From the NCBI GenBank assembly GCA_010405405.1, contig MU004232.1, positions 2,611,038 through 2,675,037 of the forward strand: a DNA stretch of 64,000 nt, written 5' to 3'. Both the position numbers and the translations under genes were made by a program. The DNA is from Microthyrium microscopicum (taxonomy: Eukaryota). This document shows positions 8,903 through 60,122 of this stretch, piece by piece (position 1 is the first letter of the stretch; every line of letters begins with the position of its first letter). Under the pieces are notes generated by a model. The model was not told where the DNA came from and ran no database searches. It saw only the letters and a program-made list of their open reading frames with translations.

Positions 8903-9279
8903 CGTTTTTGAATATAATTACATCGACGTTCATATGATCAGATTAATACGTCTAAACAGACAACGGCCTGACAAGATGCATGGCATTCTCCCAACGCCTG
9001 CGATGTCTACCATATACTCTCCTCATTACCTGGTGTTTTGTTTCCCTTCTGATGCTTAAAACTACAGATAATCCAGCCAATACGATGGGAAATAGAGCAT
9101 TCTCTCATTAGTAGCGGTAGTGGGAGCCATCTTCCTTAGTGGGCTTGTGCCATTTATTTCGTCACTCGGTTGACGGACATGTAGCGGAAGATACCACCTA
9201 TGAACAGTCTTGATAGCAAGCAGGTATTCCTCCATTGACGAGGATCTTAGGTAGCCTCTGAAGCTGATAAGGAAATGAG

Positions 9280-32264: not shown

Positions 32265-33117
32265 TTGACTGGATCAAGATCCAACAATGCTTTATACTAC
32301 AGGTAGCATGTATCTCAATGAAGACCCTATCTGGGAAACTAAATCGCATCGCGACTTTCTAGCACAGGTTGACAGCGCACCTATGGCAGATAGCGCTTGA
32401 TACATTGTCTCGCGCCAGATGTAGTGTATTTGCAATCTGTTATACGGAAAGATTCTGCGACTGTATTTTTCATTTTGGTCTACATGATTCAAGCTTTCGA
32501 GATATCTGTAATTTACCTAGTGATTACTCTATCCTGGCGATTCCAGAAGTTATTGAATCCAATTGCTGTCAGGCTAACGGCTCCAACCGATGGACAAAAT
32601 AAATGGCGTGCCCCCATCGACTTCGAGAGCTCCTACACAACACCCGCTTTGGTATCGAGTACTTTATTCATCATATATAGTGTCCAGACTTGGATCGTTT
32701 ATCGAATGCGATGGAAAGTATAACACCGCTTAATTAAAAGCTTTCGTGGGAGCCAGCAAGGTTGATGGGAGAACGCCAGTTATTTTGTCATGCGGTTGCG
32801 GCTCATAACGGCTTCAAGGTTCACAATAATATTTTTTGGACATATTTTAAAAATATAGAAAACTGAAAAAATTCCAATATACCATTTAGCGTGATCGGAA
32901 TTATCAGAAAAAAAGTTAGATGGGGGTGAAGTTGTGAACTAAATCAATTCATTATTTTTATATTTTTGTACCTTTTGGTTTTTTCTGCTGTGAACCACGC
33001 AGCCGATGAGACGTCAAACTTGAGCCAGTCAACAATACTCCATATTCAGAAACTATGTCGCATGTTGGCTTGCGCGAAGGTACTCTATGAAAGCTTCCAA
33101 ACGCACATCATGTCGCG

Positions 33118-50233: not shown

Positions 50234-51678
50234 CTATACAACGACCCTTCTCAGCACATCTGTGCCGCCTAATATCTTGCGTCCTGTGACGGCGTCGCGA
50301 CCTGCTCCACTCTCCCAGCGGCCTTCACGACTTCGTCCGCCGTCTTCTTCTTCACCCCAGCCTTCTTCGCCGCCTGGATTGCCTTCCATGAAAGCTATTT
50401 GGCGGTCATGTTGGCCATCGACCCATTTGTGGATGCAGACGTAGCAGTAGACGTAGCCGTAGGGTGATGCGGTGGGGTTGGTGATTTCGGAGGAGCAGAT
50501 AGGGCATAGACCGGATGTTTCGGGTGTGGGTGCTGGGACGGTATAGATGGGGAGGAGGGAGGAGCCTGATATTGGTGGTTGGGATTGTGGTTGTGTACCA
50601 GATTTCTTGGATGGATCGGTGGTGGTCTTTTCGGATGCGGTGCTAGATTTGTCGGTCTTCTCGGCCGGCGGAGGCGTTGGGAGGAGCCCGGCTACGACAG
50701 GTGGAGGGAGTTCGAGGCCTTCGTTTGCTTTGCGTGACAATTGACGCGCGAAATCAGAGGCGTGCCACCATTCGAGGAACTTGAGCGCGAAGATAGAGGT
50801 TGGCAGTAGGATTTTAAGAGAGGTTGCCAGGCGTGGCCCGATAACGTGTGTGACAATCCTTCTGCTAAATATCGAGTTGCTTTGTCCAGGCCTCGCAGCG
50901 GCTGCTGGTCGTGGTTGTGTCGCTAGCGCAATGGCCTTGTGGTCTGCGTCGCCTAGACGTCGCATTCGTGTACCTATTAACCACATGAATGGCGAGTGGA
51001 ACTTCGAGCTGTCGAACAGATATGCGAGGTTGAATGTAAGAAGCGCGAAGTAGTATGCCGCGTTCACGCTTGGATAAACCTTCCGTAAGAACCACTTGTA
51101 GTAGTACATAAATCGATCCTTTAACTTTGCGTTTGGTGGTAATGTGTCCTGTCGATTCGCGAAGCCTCCGCCTAGGACTGCGGCGTGCGCAGCATATATG
51201 TCGTAGTGCTCATCCAACTTTCGCTTGAGATATGGCAGGCCGACCATAACAGCCAAGTTCTTCCATACATCTGAAGTTCGAAGTTTCAGTGTCTCGCGCA
51301 CTTGGCTTGCCGCTCCGAGCTGAGAGCGTGGTATTTCGCCTCCGCGCACCCGCAGGACGCGCTCTCGATTGAGTCCGTAGAAGTTTTCGGTGAAGCTGCC
51401 ACCATATGTTCGGAGGTAGTAACGCTCGACGAGGAGCATGAGGAAGGCATAGAGCTCATCGAAGTTATTGAGGATGCGGAGAAGATATCGAGGATGTCGG
51501 TGGGTCGCGACGGCTAATAGGTATCGCAATGAAGGAGGAAGTAGGGAGCCCAGCTGTTGCTCTGATAGAATCTCTGATATCTGTTAGAACGGAGGCTGAC
51601 ACCTGATTATCTCGACATACCAAATAACGATGGCTTGAGCTCGTCAAGCCCGCTTTGGAGGTTGGTCATGAACTCCAT
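50234..51678 (-). CDS. PEX12: Peroxin Pex12 (degenerate RING peroxin)
   Basis: [54 protein letters not shown]; one 5' intron. Confidence 0.94.
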
Positions 51679-52042: not shown

Positions 52043-54522
52043 TCACAACCACGTCGTATCGACATTGGGAATCCCAGACACCGGTCTCGAGATCTCATAC
52101 GATAGCACCGTGTAGTCTTCATACGTGAGCATCAGTCTCCAACGCCTCACCACACCCGATTCCTCTTTACCCAAACTGCCTGGCATCGGGCTCACAGCCA
52201 GGCCCATCAAAGTGTAACCTGGCCGTTGACCTTGATCCTCCTCTTCTTCCGTTGGAAGTATCCAATCCACGCGGTAGAAATAGTACGGCCCACCGGTTTT
52301 CGACTCGCCTTGCAAAAGACTCATGACTGCACACCGACCATAAGGCGAGGCCACAACAAGCACACCCAGCTCAGGGATGAACGCGTGTAGGGACATGCGC
52401 TGGATGCGATTTGTCCACCACGTGACATGGAAGTATTTGTGGAAGGTATTGTAGATAGCCTGCCGTAGCGGGTGACGCATTACAACTGCTGTTCCCTTTC
52501 CATTACGCGTAGTACGCGGTTGGTGAAAGGCAATCTGTTTGCTGGAAATCCACATAAAAGGGCAGCTCGGCAGCGATGGATTACCGTTGATGCTGAAATC
52601 CCACACAAAGCGGCGTCGAGCTGGCTTTTGAGGGCGCATGTCGTTGCTGGTGTTGCTGTAGATACTACCGGTATCGCTGTCTGAATCGCTATCCTGTGTG
52701 GCGAAGCTGGGGAGAGTGACGTTGTACTTAGGCGCGTCTGGATTAGAGACATGGAAATCTCGAGTCGCGTTTGGAACGGCGTCGATTTCTTTGCTGACAT
52801 CGTAGACCTCTTCTTGACCTGGCTTACGCGGCGCAAAACCGTACTTCATGAAAGCTTTCTTATCCAGGAAATACAGACCCCAAACTGCATGGGCGAATCT
52901 ACCGTCCTCTAGACACGTACAGCCTTCCCACTGCGAGTGAGAGTCGCAGAAGTGAGCCGTCCATCGCTCGAAGCTGAGATTATTCAGATCCCAGATGATG
53001 GTTTTTCCGGTTATATCTCCAACTGCCAAGATCCGGCCTTCCGGATCATCGGATGTATTGCAGAACGTCACGCAGGGTATGTTGTTGCCAGTATCTGGCA
53101 GCCTGAACTTGTAATTGATCATGCGTGTTGACCACTTGGAGGATTTCTCAAGTTCTTCAAGTCTTGTTTGTGCAGGTGGCATGCGCCAAAAGCTCTGCTG
53201 TTCAGTCCTCTTCGAGTTCTCAAGCATAGTGGGCAACGGATCTCCCTCTGGCTGTATGAGAGCAGGTTGAAATATAAACACTTGGTGACTATTGGCGCTG
53301 ACAGCAATTTTCCTCGCTTGTCGATGGACGCTCAACCCCCAGGCACTGACGCCAACCGAATCTGCAAAGTCCGCATCGTCTGGATAGTAATCAATACCTG
53401 TATCAGGATTGGTTTCGATAAACTGCTCGATCTTCCGAATGAAGTAAAATGACACACTGCCGCAATCTGTGCATAACAATAGAATTTCATCGTTACCCAG
53501 GAATTCGGTAATCATGTGGTTGATATCATCAGGTCTGCGACGGTCCATGTAGCCGCTCCGATTGGAGCCTGTTGGTGGAGTTATGTAAGTGGATGGCTCC
53601 GTACCAAGTACTGGAGCTGGGAACTCCGGTCTATAGACAAAGATGTCGCTTCCATGCGCAATAAAGTACAAGTTGTACACTTTGGAAAGCGCTGTCTGAT
53701 AAAACAAGTTAGATAATCGTGTTTTCAGGCATCAATGGATGGGCAAAACAATCAGCGTGCTATCATTCCACGATGGCTATCATGTCACGATTTACTGTCG
53801 AGTGCTCTGTTCGCCATAGAGGCCATTGAGGTCTTCCCACTTCATCGTATAGCATGAAAAACATGATAACTTTGTCGTTGGATAGTAGCATCGGTGTTCA
53901 TAGGAGCGTGACGTTGCTTTCATTTCCGTTGATAGACCTTTTCTTCGTCCACAAGCTGATGCTCGTATCATGATCACAGTTAAACTTACCAGATTACTTC
54001 TTCCCAAAGCAAAATACGGAGCATCTGGCTCCCTATAGAAACGTTAGCCACCTCCATCGGGCATGGATACCTCGAAAGTTAGAGCTACCTCAGATCGAAC
54101 TATAATCAGTGTTAGTCTATTGCATGATGCGATCTGGGGTGAACAATCTCCCAGCGGATGAGCAAAATAACTGGCGCGCTCCTGATAGCTGTCAATTTTT
54201 CTACCTCTTTCGAGCCCTCTGTTTCAACCAAGACGGACAGCTCGTTGACGTCTTGTCCGACGTGGAGGAGGACATCACGTCTTCTCCTTCAACAGCGTGA
54301 TGATGACCATGAAGTTTCGTGGAAGCGATGCCATTATTTTGCCCATCCATTGAATCCTTCAATTTGAACATTCAAAACAAGATTTACACGTACCCTATTC
54401 TCTCCATTTTCGATCCCCAGCGACTTGATCGTCACTTCTTTCGCCCTCGGAGGCAGCTTCGTCGATGCGCCAGGTGAGCCATGATGAGAATCTATCGGTG
54501 GTGGCTTCCAGCGTGAATGCAT
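52043..54522 (-). CDS. CRT10-like protein; predicted exons 54522-54394, 54099-54089, 54032-53990, 53695-52043
   Basis: Spliced RSNL|TALSKVYNLYFIA, INHMITEFLGNDEILL, SAWGLSVH, HAFIPELGVLVVASP.GR, WRLMLTY.D.TVLSYEI resemble the Crt10 family; predicted junction phases are consistent. Confidence 0.8.
53696..54393. repeat. Imperfect inverted repeat formed by two 294-nt introns of the CRT10-like gene
   Basis: 53732-53752 vs revcomp of 54333-54353 match at 20/21 nt; 53766-53773 vs 54317-54324 match at 8/8; further collinear patches. Confidence 0.85.
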
Positions 54523-54966
54523 CCAGTTAGGGTGAAGATAACGCCAACTGGCGAGGATGCGCAAGATAATGATGGAATTGTAAAAGCATCAGATCGTACG
54601 CAAACAAAAGGCAAGGCTGTAGATAGAAGTTGATGTCTTCAGTGCAGTCGCTCGATCAGGAAGTTAGTACATTCTAGACTGCATCACGTGACTAAGAAAT
54701 GAGTCAATTGAATCGCGTTGGAATACAGAGACGAGTGCAGTTTGAATGGAAAAGTTTTTGGTGATTCGGATTGGAAATATGATTTCGAAGGATTTCTGAG
54801 GGAAAGTCTGGGAACAATTGTGGTTGGTATCGTGTAGCTAAGCGCCTGTCAAGACATCCTGTTCAATAGAAAACCAAAGCTTGTGGCCGGAATTCAATTG
54901 TTTGAAGTTTGAATGCTTTAATAGCTTGACACTTAGGACTAATAATACATTGACTGATCGCTACAG

Positions 54967-57419: not shown

Positions 57420-60122
57420 CCCGATATTATGGTAAGGATGGAAGGTTTGAAAAGAGGCGCCCTTGATTTTGCTGTAATTTCTTGTATTTTCCGGCTGGCA
57501 GATAGATTTGGAATTCAGATGCGTGTAACGATGGGAGGCTGCCTAATCCGCGAACGCGCGATGTACATACGGCCCATCAGTGCATTTGTGGAGGAGAAAC
57601 GCGTTGCATTTGCTTTAGAGCCTGAAAAATGTTGATGATTGGGCAGCTCAAGAGGTAGTAGGGAAATCCCGGCAACACGGTGAATGTTGTACAACCGTTT
57701 GGAAGGTGAAGTTGGGGGCGTTGACGCGCTGGGAACATCGAAGCGAGGTTGCTAAACCCACCACTACGGTAATAATAAACATTTTTTTGGTTGGTTTGTA
57801 CAACTCTTTGTACGACTCTACCTGGACTTCATTCGACAATTTTATCCATAAAAATGAAAACCAAGAATTCGAATCGATCTGGTTCTGTTGGTATCTGATT
57901 CGGGGGCAGTCCTGTTTTCCGGTTATCAGACGACTTCAACTTCCTGTTCAGCATCGATTTTTGAGTAGTTTAAAATCATGAGATGAAAATGCTTCTATAC
58001 GAATGAAGAACCTGACAAAACTTTTCTATGGTTGTAGCTTGTCTATGAACATTGACTTTATTCCACATCTGGAATCCTGGTAGCGATAGCATAAGATTTG
58101 ATTCTTGAAGCACCTACAACAGCATCGTCACACTCACAATTCATCCTCCAAATTTTCATTGGCCACCTCTTGTGCAACCAATGCAGGTATCTAGCGGTTA
58201 AGCAACTTCAAACGTCACTCAATATTGGTCTACGACGACAGCATCCTCAGGATTTCCTATCTACGCCCTCAAGGGGGGTCTCAGACTCTCAGCTCCTCTT
58301 CTCTTCTGGCGCACTGTTCGTCTGTCTGCTGTGTAACAAGAAGCCTGGTTAAAAATTCGGGCGCCCGGCGCGCTAACCGACAGAAAATGTTCTCAATAAG
58401 ATGGCTGCTGGTTATGATGAGCTTCCGCGGCATCTGATATGATGCGCTGTCCACGGTACCTGCCTGTCGATATCTGTTCAAACATTGACGCACGGCTGCT
58501 CAGGCAGACATTCCACGATCTACCATCGGACAGCATTGCCCAATATTCGACAAGTTGCTAGCTCATGGAACCAAGAAGGACTTTGCAAGCAGACTGGCGA
58601 CAGGTCTCGGTAAAAAAAGAGAACATGGAGACAGTACACCCCAGGGGCTTTTGTTGTTACACAAGTAGCAGTATTATTGGAAACCATTGAGTATCCTGAG
58701 GATCGCTGGCAAGTATTGACATTATGGGATATCCCAAACTCCCCACGCAGAATGAATTACACTGCACAGGCGAGATTGTCCGGTTCCGGTAAAAGACCGA
58801 GCTGCATTTCAAACCAGAAGAGGGCTTTCACATTTCTGTGTAACTCGAAGAAAGACTTTACCTTCCTCTTACTGGTTGAATACCGTCAGATTCCTGGCTC
58901 AACGTTGTGCCCGCGTCGTAATAGGCCTTGGGCAAACCACGACTCGATATTGCTGTACTACCCCAAAAATATTTTCTTGTATAACCTGAGGTTAGTCAAA
59001 TCATCAAATGTCAAGCTGATGTGCATAAATAAAATGCTGTCGGCAAACAACCGGTACCAGCTTATGTAGAAGCTAAAGAAAGGACATAAAGCGAGCTTGA
59101 GTTCCTGCGCTTTGGTTCTTGTCCTACATGATCATTATGCATCGATATCAACCAAGCATTTTATAGTTCTTTTTTATGCGAACTGACGAGCAAAAAATAC
59201 ATCATGCACAGTTACCTATAATTTCTCTTTCGCCGTTACATATTTATCCTTTACACCTGCTTTGAACCAGGATCTAGATTTCTCGTCAATTCATTCCTTC
59301 CGGGGACAGGTTCCTCGTGGCAAGCTCAACATTCCCAGGGCCTTCTGTCAAGGGTTCCCTACCTGTTACCACCACTCGACAAGATAACTGGCACATGCAC
59401 CATCCCATCGGTTTCGGTGGTTGTTGTTGTTGAATCTGTAAGTTCAAGTGCTTCTTCTCTCACCGAATATGTTTATTGCTATTCCAGTTCACCAAGAAAT
59501 GGTGGGAGAAAGAAATACGCTTTCTGTAGAAACAGTCGATGGTAACCATTGTCGTTGAAAGGAAGCATGGCAATCATGTTGTCTACCCGTTTGGGGTCAC
59601 CATTGCTTCGGATGGTCCCTGTTTCTCTAACCGTTTGCTTTTTCTGATTGGTCACACAGTCATAATTATCTCATCCTCCGTGTTACTTTTAATTCCTTTT
59701 CGCCTTCCTGGTAGGGATACGAAGCGAAGAGCCGCCTTATTGAGCCACGCTTCGATACGCGGCCTGCTCGTGAAAGACGCAAATACGATATACATTACTG
59801 TACTGGTTCTCGCATATCAGAGCCTCTCCTTTCATATCAAATCGTTTGGTACACAACAGTCTGACTAGCGCTTATCTGACCGCCTTTCAAATCAAGTTTC
59901 TCGTCGAGCTGGGTCCAAGGTTGTTTTGAAGATATTGTCGAGTCAGGATATTACCTCGTGGAACACTAGCATCGGCCCGCCTGAAGTAGTCCGCTGGTCT
60001 GCTACCGAGCGTAGGGTACTGGTACATTAAAAGCCCCTGGTAGATCCGATATTTGGATCCCATCAGGTACCCCATTTGTTTTCGACAAGGCTGAAAAAAC
60101 TACACACCAAGCAAATCCGACC

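Follow-up and report, generated by a model that had tools for sequence, protein, structure and literature searches.

In animals, transposon-derived reverse-complementary matches in the introns that flank an exon have been reported to drive back-splicing and exon skipping (PMC8330042, PMC8938519), and in Saccharomyces cerevisiae intron zipper stems have been described, among them that of RPL7B with a mutually exclusive alternative partner (PMC12350175, PMC12311795). The symmetrical introns and stwintrons of the Hypoxylaceae contain inverted repeats of 45-55 nt (48 nt) that are about 73% alike and lie about 100 nt (102 nt) apart (PMC8469720). For circular RNAs in fungi, a preprint of 2026 ascribes formation with the help of complementary repeats in flanking introns to mammals and states that these rules do not hold for single-exon fungal genes. 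Here, we describe a locus of Microthyrium microscopicum (Dothideomycetes), located in a 64-kb window (the whole stretch analysed, 64,000 nt of contig MU004232.1), in which a gene of the CRT10 family on the minus strand possesses two introns, A (54100-54393) and B (53696-53989), of 294 nt each. Between them lie 110 nt that include 54 coding nucleotides (FDLREPDAPYFALGRSNL). The initial annotation had proposed that the complementarity of these introns forms a splicing switch or gives rise to a circular RNA. The analysis makes it quite probable that the locus instead carries two insertions similar to MITEs (miniature inverted-repeat transposable elements), each into an ordinary short intron, of a non-coding element of about 200-215 bp with terminal inverted repeats of about 60 nt.

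The central match between the two introns is a 21-nt core, in which 20 of the 21 positions are matched and the single T/C difference becomes a U-G pair on the transcribed strand, just as the initial annotation had reported. This core is confined to these two sites in the 64 kb, where 0.00 matches are expected, and the local alignment of A with B has a score of 37, as compared with 18.3 +/- 2.2 and a maximum of 27 for 500 shuffles. Chance as the cause of the complementarity was excluded by these shuffle scores and the expected number of core matches. The 8-bp pair TTCCACGA/TCGTGGAA that had been pointed out is also present. With gaps the core extends to about 57 bp, and when gaps are allowed, the left arm of the repeat in A and the right arm of that in B can be aligned across 63 columns (z 6.25, 0/300 shuffles). 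The introns had been considered imperfect, collinear reverse complements, a view that could not be upheld over their length, since the element interiors of A and B gave a z of 0.0 when aligned as reverse complements (212/400 shuffles as good) and the flanks of A and B are unlike. In the direct orientation the interiors gave a z of 1.6 (35/400 shuffles as good), and for the 60-nt outer flanks of the elements a z above 2.5 was obtained for one of 45 pairs, which was not an A/B pair. Aligned globally, A and reverse-complemented B gave a z of 4.9, which dropped to 3.2 once the core was removed; in direct orientation the two introns also aligned significantly (z 3.7-4.05), and just inside the arms A right resembles B right in the direct orientation (z 3.5, 1/300). 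Judging from these alignments, the only parts with significant complementarity are the arms, ~60 nt long, of a repeat embedded in the introns. Of the inner patches noted initially, AGGAGCG/CGCTCCT stood, and corresponds to the right arm in A and the left arm in B. The innermost one, TCG.ATCATG, sits in the non-homologous flanks, whose similarity is not significant, and fell away as element homology; the chance of such a 9/10 match was roughly estimated at 0.09.

The copy in intron A comprises 201 nt (54152-54352), with a left arm at about 54300-54358 and a right arm at about 54146-54204. It was recognized by an inverted repeat formed by the left arm and its own partner (I3; 15 nt, 93%, 163 nt apart), by the self-hairpin of the intron (24 matches in 26 columns with gaps allowed, z 4.5, 2/300), and by an arm profile with E values of 5e-10 and 1e-9, both arms having been used in building that profile. 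The copy in intron B comprises 200 nt (53733-53932). Its well-kept right arm (53727-53783) matched the profile with an E value of 1e-9, having likewise been used to build it, and a decayed left arm was identified at about 53883-53913 (B77-107), where and in which orientation it would be expected, with an E value of 0.017 in a search of 588 nt. Intron A is thereby composed of 41 nt, the 201-nt element, and 52 nt, and intron B of 57 nt, the 200-nt element, and 37 nt, so that the host sequence without the element amounts to about 93-94 nt in each. The orientation of the element is not firmly fixed, as the repeat symmetry reaches far inward. The right arm in intron B also contains a tandem 16-nt duplication (GCTATCAT..CACGAT; D3), the two units of which (53759-53774 and 53776-53791) are 88% alike. 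A further observation at this arm comes from run X6 (2025, under a different organism label), which contains two 151-nt contigs of a depth of about 3 that are near-identical to the locus; they differ by A>T at 53707 and by T>G at 53740, the latter inside the 21-nt core, and may derive from a related strain or reflect sequencing error.

The three clear arms at this locus are more similar to each other than most other arm pairs are, with identities of 40/46 for A left/A right, 46/54 for A left/B right, and 37/47 for B right/A right. Among the other 33 arm pairs of the family, 29 are 62-84% alike, three span only 5-17 positions, and one, namely A left with an arm of the copy at 32584, reaches 45/56; within each of the other copies, the arms are 69-77% alike. 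The two intronic copies are each other's closest relatives, one being probably derived from the other or both from one source, and their sister relation would fit a local transposition or a recent origin from a shared source. A special conservation of A left/B right was considered and dropped, since its 46/54 is matched by the 40/46 of A left/A right. As the former pair is not better kept than the latter, selection on cross-intron pairing need not be invoked.

The element is repeated elsewhere in the window. The motif GGATGRGCAAAAYAA, with up to two mismatches, was found seven times, as compared with 0.45 expected, and none of 100 shuffles reached seven. The best-kept copy (32584-32798) has a length of 215 bp and lies in DNA poor in open reading frames (ORFs); its 53-nt arms are 75% complementary and 109 nt apart, and it is bordered by CGGCTC on each side. 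In alignments with intron A this copy gave z values of 5.7 and 5.8, and its reverse complement gave a z of 6.4 with intron B, with 0/300 shuffles as good in each case. A profile built from five clear arms then detected two decayed copies, neither of which had entered the profile. One (about 8961-9176) consists of two inverted arms separated by about 215 bp, with E values of 0.014 and 0.053, and the other (about 59364-59598) is an inverted arm pair at the expected spacing, of which one arm has an E value of 0.0079 and the other only 4.9. Both are located in ORF-poor DNA. Nine arms fit one consensus of about 60 nt. When the nine-arm profile was run on shuffled windows, 12 matches with an E value of at most 1 were obtained in 20 windows, a control that covers the nine-arm profile only. 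In total, five copies were identified in the 64 kb, three of which are in ORF-poor DNA as judged by the ORF map alone. The copies are 200-235 bp long and contain no copy-specific ORF of at least 60 amino acids. Their own arms are predicted to form duplexes with energies of -42 to -72 kcal/mol, except for the own pair of intron B with only -35.5 kcal/mol, the background being -28.7 +/- 7.6 kcal/mol. Five copies in 64 kb hint at an abundant, old family, which appears to be undescribed: four 14-letter arm strings (two variants on both strands) did not occur in the literature searched, and the literature on MITEs in introns of Dothideomycetes returned nothing specific to this element family.

Two weaker resemblances to the arms were also noticed. 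The 5' leader of the CRT10 gene contains an arm-like motif with two mismatches at 54555-54569 (GGATGCGCAAGATAA, plus strand), for which the nine-arm profile gave no match with an E value of at most 1 and which may be due to chance. A lone arm-like match at 50737-50774 (E 0.066 with the five-arm and 0.81 with the nine-arm profile) has no inverted partner, is situated within the long ORF of the neighbouring gene, and is probably due to chance as well.

The product of the host gene is a member of the CRT10 family (Pfam PF08728, 62.1 bits as compared with a cut-off of 23.6, E 4.4e-17), a domain that was found in 45/45 homologues. Exon 1 contributes 43 codons (MHSRW...GENR, 54394-54522) that are the same as the N terminus of the deposited species protein P0001 (611 amino acids). 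It is followed by intron A (GTACGT...ACTAAC...TATAG, with ACTAAC beginning at intron index 277, 0-based), the 11-nt micro-exon 2a (54089-54099; TTCGATCTGAG, coding for FDL and two bases of R), a 56-nt mini-intron of phase 2 (54033-54088; GTAGCT...GCTAAC...TATAG), the 43-nt exon 2b (53990-54032; (R)EPDAPYFALGRSNL, with the conserved R-x-N-L motif at its end), and intron B (GTAAGT...TCTAAC...TATCAG). The last exon (52043-53695) comprises 550 codons and the stop, encodes the CRT10 domain, and, over the 550 codons (52046-53695), is 100% identical to P0001. The P0001 sequence ...GENR|FDLR|EPDAPYFALGRSNL|TALSKVYNLYF... is in exact agreement with this exon model. The lengths of both introns, their splice and branch motifs, their phase 0, and the 54 coding nucleotides between them had all been read correctly by the initial annotation.

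Transcript support came from run X5, whose label as RNA is a guess. In a contig of this run (4783 nt, depth of about 660) position 53695 is joined to 53990, followed by 53990-54032, the 11 letters of the micro-exon, and then 54394, so that exactly the 294 nt of intron B, the mini-intron, and intron A are missing and exon 1 is unbroken. This contig is read as a spliced transcript because exactly three GT..AG segments are absent from it; the unspliced stretch is present in the DNA runs X1 and X3. According to this one transcript-like contig, intron A, the mini-intron, and intron B are real, splicing is normal, and the 54-nt cassette is retained. This is the sole transcript form recovered among assembled contigs, which drop rare isoforms and circles and are uninformative on these as well as on strand and level. 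The inclusion of the 11-nt micro-exon between introns of 294 and 56 nt is a further feature of this contig. Internal exons this small are unusual in fungi. No Rfam match with an E value of at most 1 was obtained within 53500-54600 on either strand, and therefore no known intron-hosted small RNA was identified. A distant-mode search of a plasmid collection gave no match; none was expected and this result is uninformative.

Information on the history of the two intron positions was obtained from a comparison set of homologous proteins and 60 distant metagenome loci identified by tblastn. The closest homologues, P0002 and P0003 (54-56% identical), are not among these 60 loci, where the best segment identity is at most 46%. 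The motif W-R-x-N-L-T-A-L-S is kept in homologues, and the longer segment ...G.ERF....W-R-x-N-L-T-A-L-S... is uninterrupted in the proteins P0007 and P0009 and at the loci L003, L017, L014, and L024; by this comparison, the cassette is ancestral coding sequence. The position of intron B (NL|TA) is common to 9 of the 60 loci, at which the tblastn match begins at residue 62 and the upstream bases end in AG; at L004, L005, L006, and L015 the WRxNL exon is followed by GT and by introns of 70, 156, 156, and 55 nt, respectively. Because this position is shared, intron B most likely predates the arrival of the element. The position of intron A is read through without a break at the seven loci that cross it (L003, L017, L014, L024, L039, L043, and L042). 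The idea that intron A and the micro-exon are the footprint of an exon insertion was excluded, as relatives read ...ERF... across the junction of exons 1 and 2a. The arm motif was found at none of the 60 loci of relatives. For some of the distant CRT10-like loci (L039-L043, L050, and L051), gaps or stop codons in the tblastn alignments between YN and LYF suggest that an intron occupies this nearby position rather than NL|TA.

On the sequence evidence, the complementarity between introns A and B is homology between transposon repeats. Four complementarities arise because two near-palindromic copies adjoin, and would permit pairing of the own arms in A, of the own arms in B, of A left with B right on the outside (the 21-bp core), and of A right with B left on the inside (AGGAGCG). 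Since these arm pairings are nested, the introns take on the appearance of a collinear inverted duplication. During transcription the arms of intron A could pair with each other first, as the own partner of the left arm would be transcribed about 400 nt before the arm in B. In the resulting hairpin the stem would start about 45 nt after the 5' splice site and be followed by the branch point at a distance of about 39 nt, and the effective distance of about 85 nt would make the enlarged intron A tolerable. In line with such a hairpin, the arms of intron A folded alone are predicted to pair (about 46-72 with 212-238; -88.2 kcal/mol, z -2.17, 5/200), whereas intron B alone showed no significant structure (z -0.10, 95/200 shuffles). 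Co-transcriptional removal of intron A would prevent the cross-intron duplex from ever forming. Should the duplex form, donor A and the branch point of B would come within about 50 nt, which would make an in-frame skip geometrically reasonable; the duplex would be a by-product causing at most some skipping or back-splicing of the cassette.

Several points weigh against the two-insertion interpretation. The equal lengths of 294 nt, 41+201+52 in one case and 57+200+37 in the other, must be a coincidence, and this, together with the near-symmetric placement of the copies (41/37 nt on the outer and 52/57 nt on the inner sides), is its weakest point. A clean target-site duplication, CGGCTC/CGGCTC, is seen at one of the five copies; inspection by eye of the remaining flanks revealed matches of the 4/5 type or shifted matches, and none for the copy in intron B. 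The copies are old, with a whole-element pairwise identity of just 47-51%, and the DNA runs, searched with the 2-kb stretch at a likeness of at least 80%, each yielded only the one source contig and no close extra copies of the two introns. The copy search covered the 64-kb window. The assignment to a MITE-like class is based on size, lack of coding capacity, inverted repeats, and several dispersed copies in this window. Intron A has no counterpart at the seven loci that cross its position, and may or may not be older than the insertion. Finally, a far greater stability is predicted for the cross-intron duplex than for the hairpin of intron A, so that the duplex may have a functional effect.

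That one intron is a decayed inverted copy of the other, an option that had been raised initially, would account for the equal lengths, for matching patches that are near-symmetric about the cassette, and for the global match of A to reverse-complemented B, which stays significant without the core. However, neither the 5' flank of A and the 3' flank of B nor the 3' flank of A and the 5' flank of B have significant similarity, and the interiors are not complementary. The significant direct alignment is expected of palindromic elements, the direct likeness of A right and B right just inside the arms also argues against inversion, and the position of intron B is common to distant relatives, all of which makes an inverted duplication very unlikely. 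A similarly low probability is assigned to an introner or introner-like element that was inserted twice and generated both introns. Equal-length, long, structured introns in a Dothideomycete, a class for which introner-like elements have been reported (PMC4457414), are compatible with this idea, as are the proliferating introns of about 207 nt with their 45-55-nt inverted repeats described for the Hypoxylaceae (PMC8469720), and 0/7 crossing loci have an intron at the position of intron A. Yet both ends of the repeated unit lie 37-57 nt within the introns, the flanks that bear the splice sites are not homologous between copies, three of the five copies are in ORF-poor DNA, intron B occupies a position found at 9/60 distant loci, and the 6-bp direct repeat around one copy fits DNA transposition. 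Of the earlier suggestion of an element inserted twice, the repeated element was thus retained and its intron-generating nature was not. The search for extra copies revealed three more copies of the element in the window and, at a likeness of at least 80%, no close copies of the two introns in the DNA runs.

The remaining alternative is the functional RNA switch, in which the duplex of A left with B right competes with the hairpin of intron A and loops out the cassette, resulting in an in-frame isoform without R-x-N-L or in a small circular RNA. Its physical premise, a duplex across the cassette that brings donor A close to the branch point of B, holds in the predicted equilibrium fold. The 698-nt segment has a predicted energy of -209.9 kcal/mol, with the A/B duplex in both the minimum-energy and centroid structures; the fold is more stable than shuffled controls (z -2.5 with 20 shuffles; z -2.9 with 0/60 as low), a comparison that the initial annotation had called for, and shuffling of intron B alone gave a z of -2.9. 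At equilibrium the A-left core is predicted to pair with B right with an ensemble probability of 0.996, and blocking the B core raises the energy to -189.2 kcal/mol, a cost of about 20 kcal/mol. The A left/B right duplex (57 bp) is predicted at -70.5 kcal/mol, on par with the -72.0 kcal/mol of the arms of the best-kept copy and well below the background given above, as compared with -43.2 kcal/mol (37 bp) for A left/A right. Donor A is predicted to be about 36-45 nt from the stem and the branch point of B about 14 nt past it, the skip stays in frame since both introns are of phase 0, and reverse-complementary matches are reported to promote back-splicing and exon skipping in animals (PMC8330042). 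The pairing picture of the initial annotation, correct for A left/B right, was incomplete, since A left also has an earlier-transcribed partner in its own intron, and intron A may fold and be spliced before the arm in B exists. Moreover, the sole recovered transcript form includes the cassette, transposon repeats fully account for the arm pairing, which is no better kept across the introns than within intron A, the motif is absent from 60/60 loci of relatives, and the T>G change at 53740 in the X6 contig would break a core pair, although it may be an error. Taken together, a switch of this kind is considered unlikely. The same doubt applies to a three-way kinetic version, in which A left would either pair with A right as a zipper favouring normal removal of intron A or, with intron A unspliced, enter the 57-bp duplex with B right, giving rise to a skip isoform without R-x-N-L or to a 110-nt circle.

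Two MITE-like insertions would make this locus an example of small hairpin transposons that enlarge fungal introns and leave the gene unbroken, with two copies in neighbouring introns that mimic a designed RNA switch. MITE-like intron insertions that create incidental complementary matches are of an already known kind, and that a fungus which has been little studied should harbour an undescribed MITE family comes as no surprise. The locus calls for caution in sequence-only scans, as palindromic repeats can yield equal-length complementary introns. If cross-intron pairing were found to alter splicing, the flanking-repeat mechanism of exon skipping and circular RNA formation of animals and plants would extend to fungi, and a kinetic switch, if real, would represent transposon-built alternative splicing or circular RNA formation via complementary introns in a filamentous fungus.

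The element shares with MITEs a length of 200-215 bp, the non-coding nature, and long terminal inverted repeats able to form hairpins, as well as its dispersal in genic and ORF-poor DNA and a short flanking direct repeat at one copy. It differs in that a clean target-site duplication is seen at only 1/5 copies and in that these are old and diverged; neither a superfamily nor an autonomous partner, for which no search was made, was identified. As far as the cited accounts of the other systems go, the Hypoxylaceae introns come close in dimensions, their figures resembling the 53-nt arms, 75% complementarity, and 109-nt spacing of the best-kept copy. In those introns (PMC8469720) and in introner-like elements (PMC4457414), however, the repeated unit is described as the whole intron with its splice sites, located in genes and without flanking duplications, whereas the element studied here lies inside an intron, occurs also in ORF-poor DNA, and has one copy with a flanking direct repeat. 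In common with the zipper stems reported for yeast, intron A is predicted to form a long-range stem that lies between its 5' splice site and its branch point, and it has an exclusive alternative partner, but this stem comes from transposon repeats and is marginal as compared with shuffles (z -2.2, 5/200). The parallels to the reverse-complementary matches described in animals are that repeats flank an exon unit, that a predicted duplex of about 57 bp could loop the exons out, and that arms of one intron can pair either with each other or with those of the neighbouring intron, in competition. The differences are that the host is a fungus with short introns, that the complementarity comes from inverted repeats rather than from oppositely oriented whole elements, that no skip or back-splice junction was seen among the assembled contigs, and that the enclosed unit is tiny (110 nt, containing an intron).

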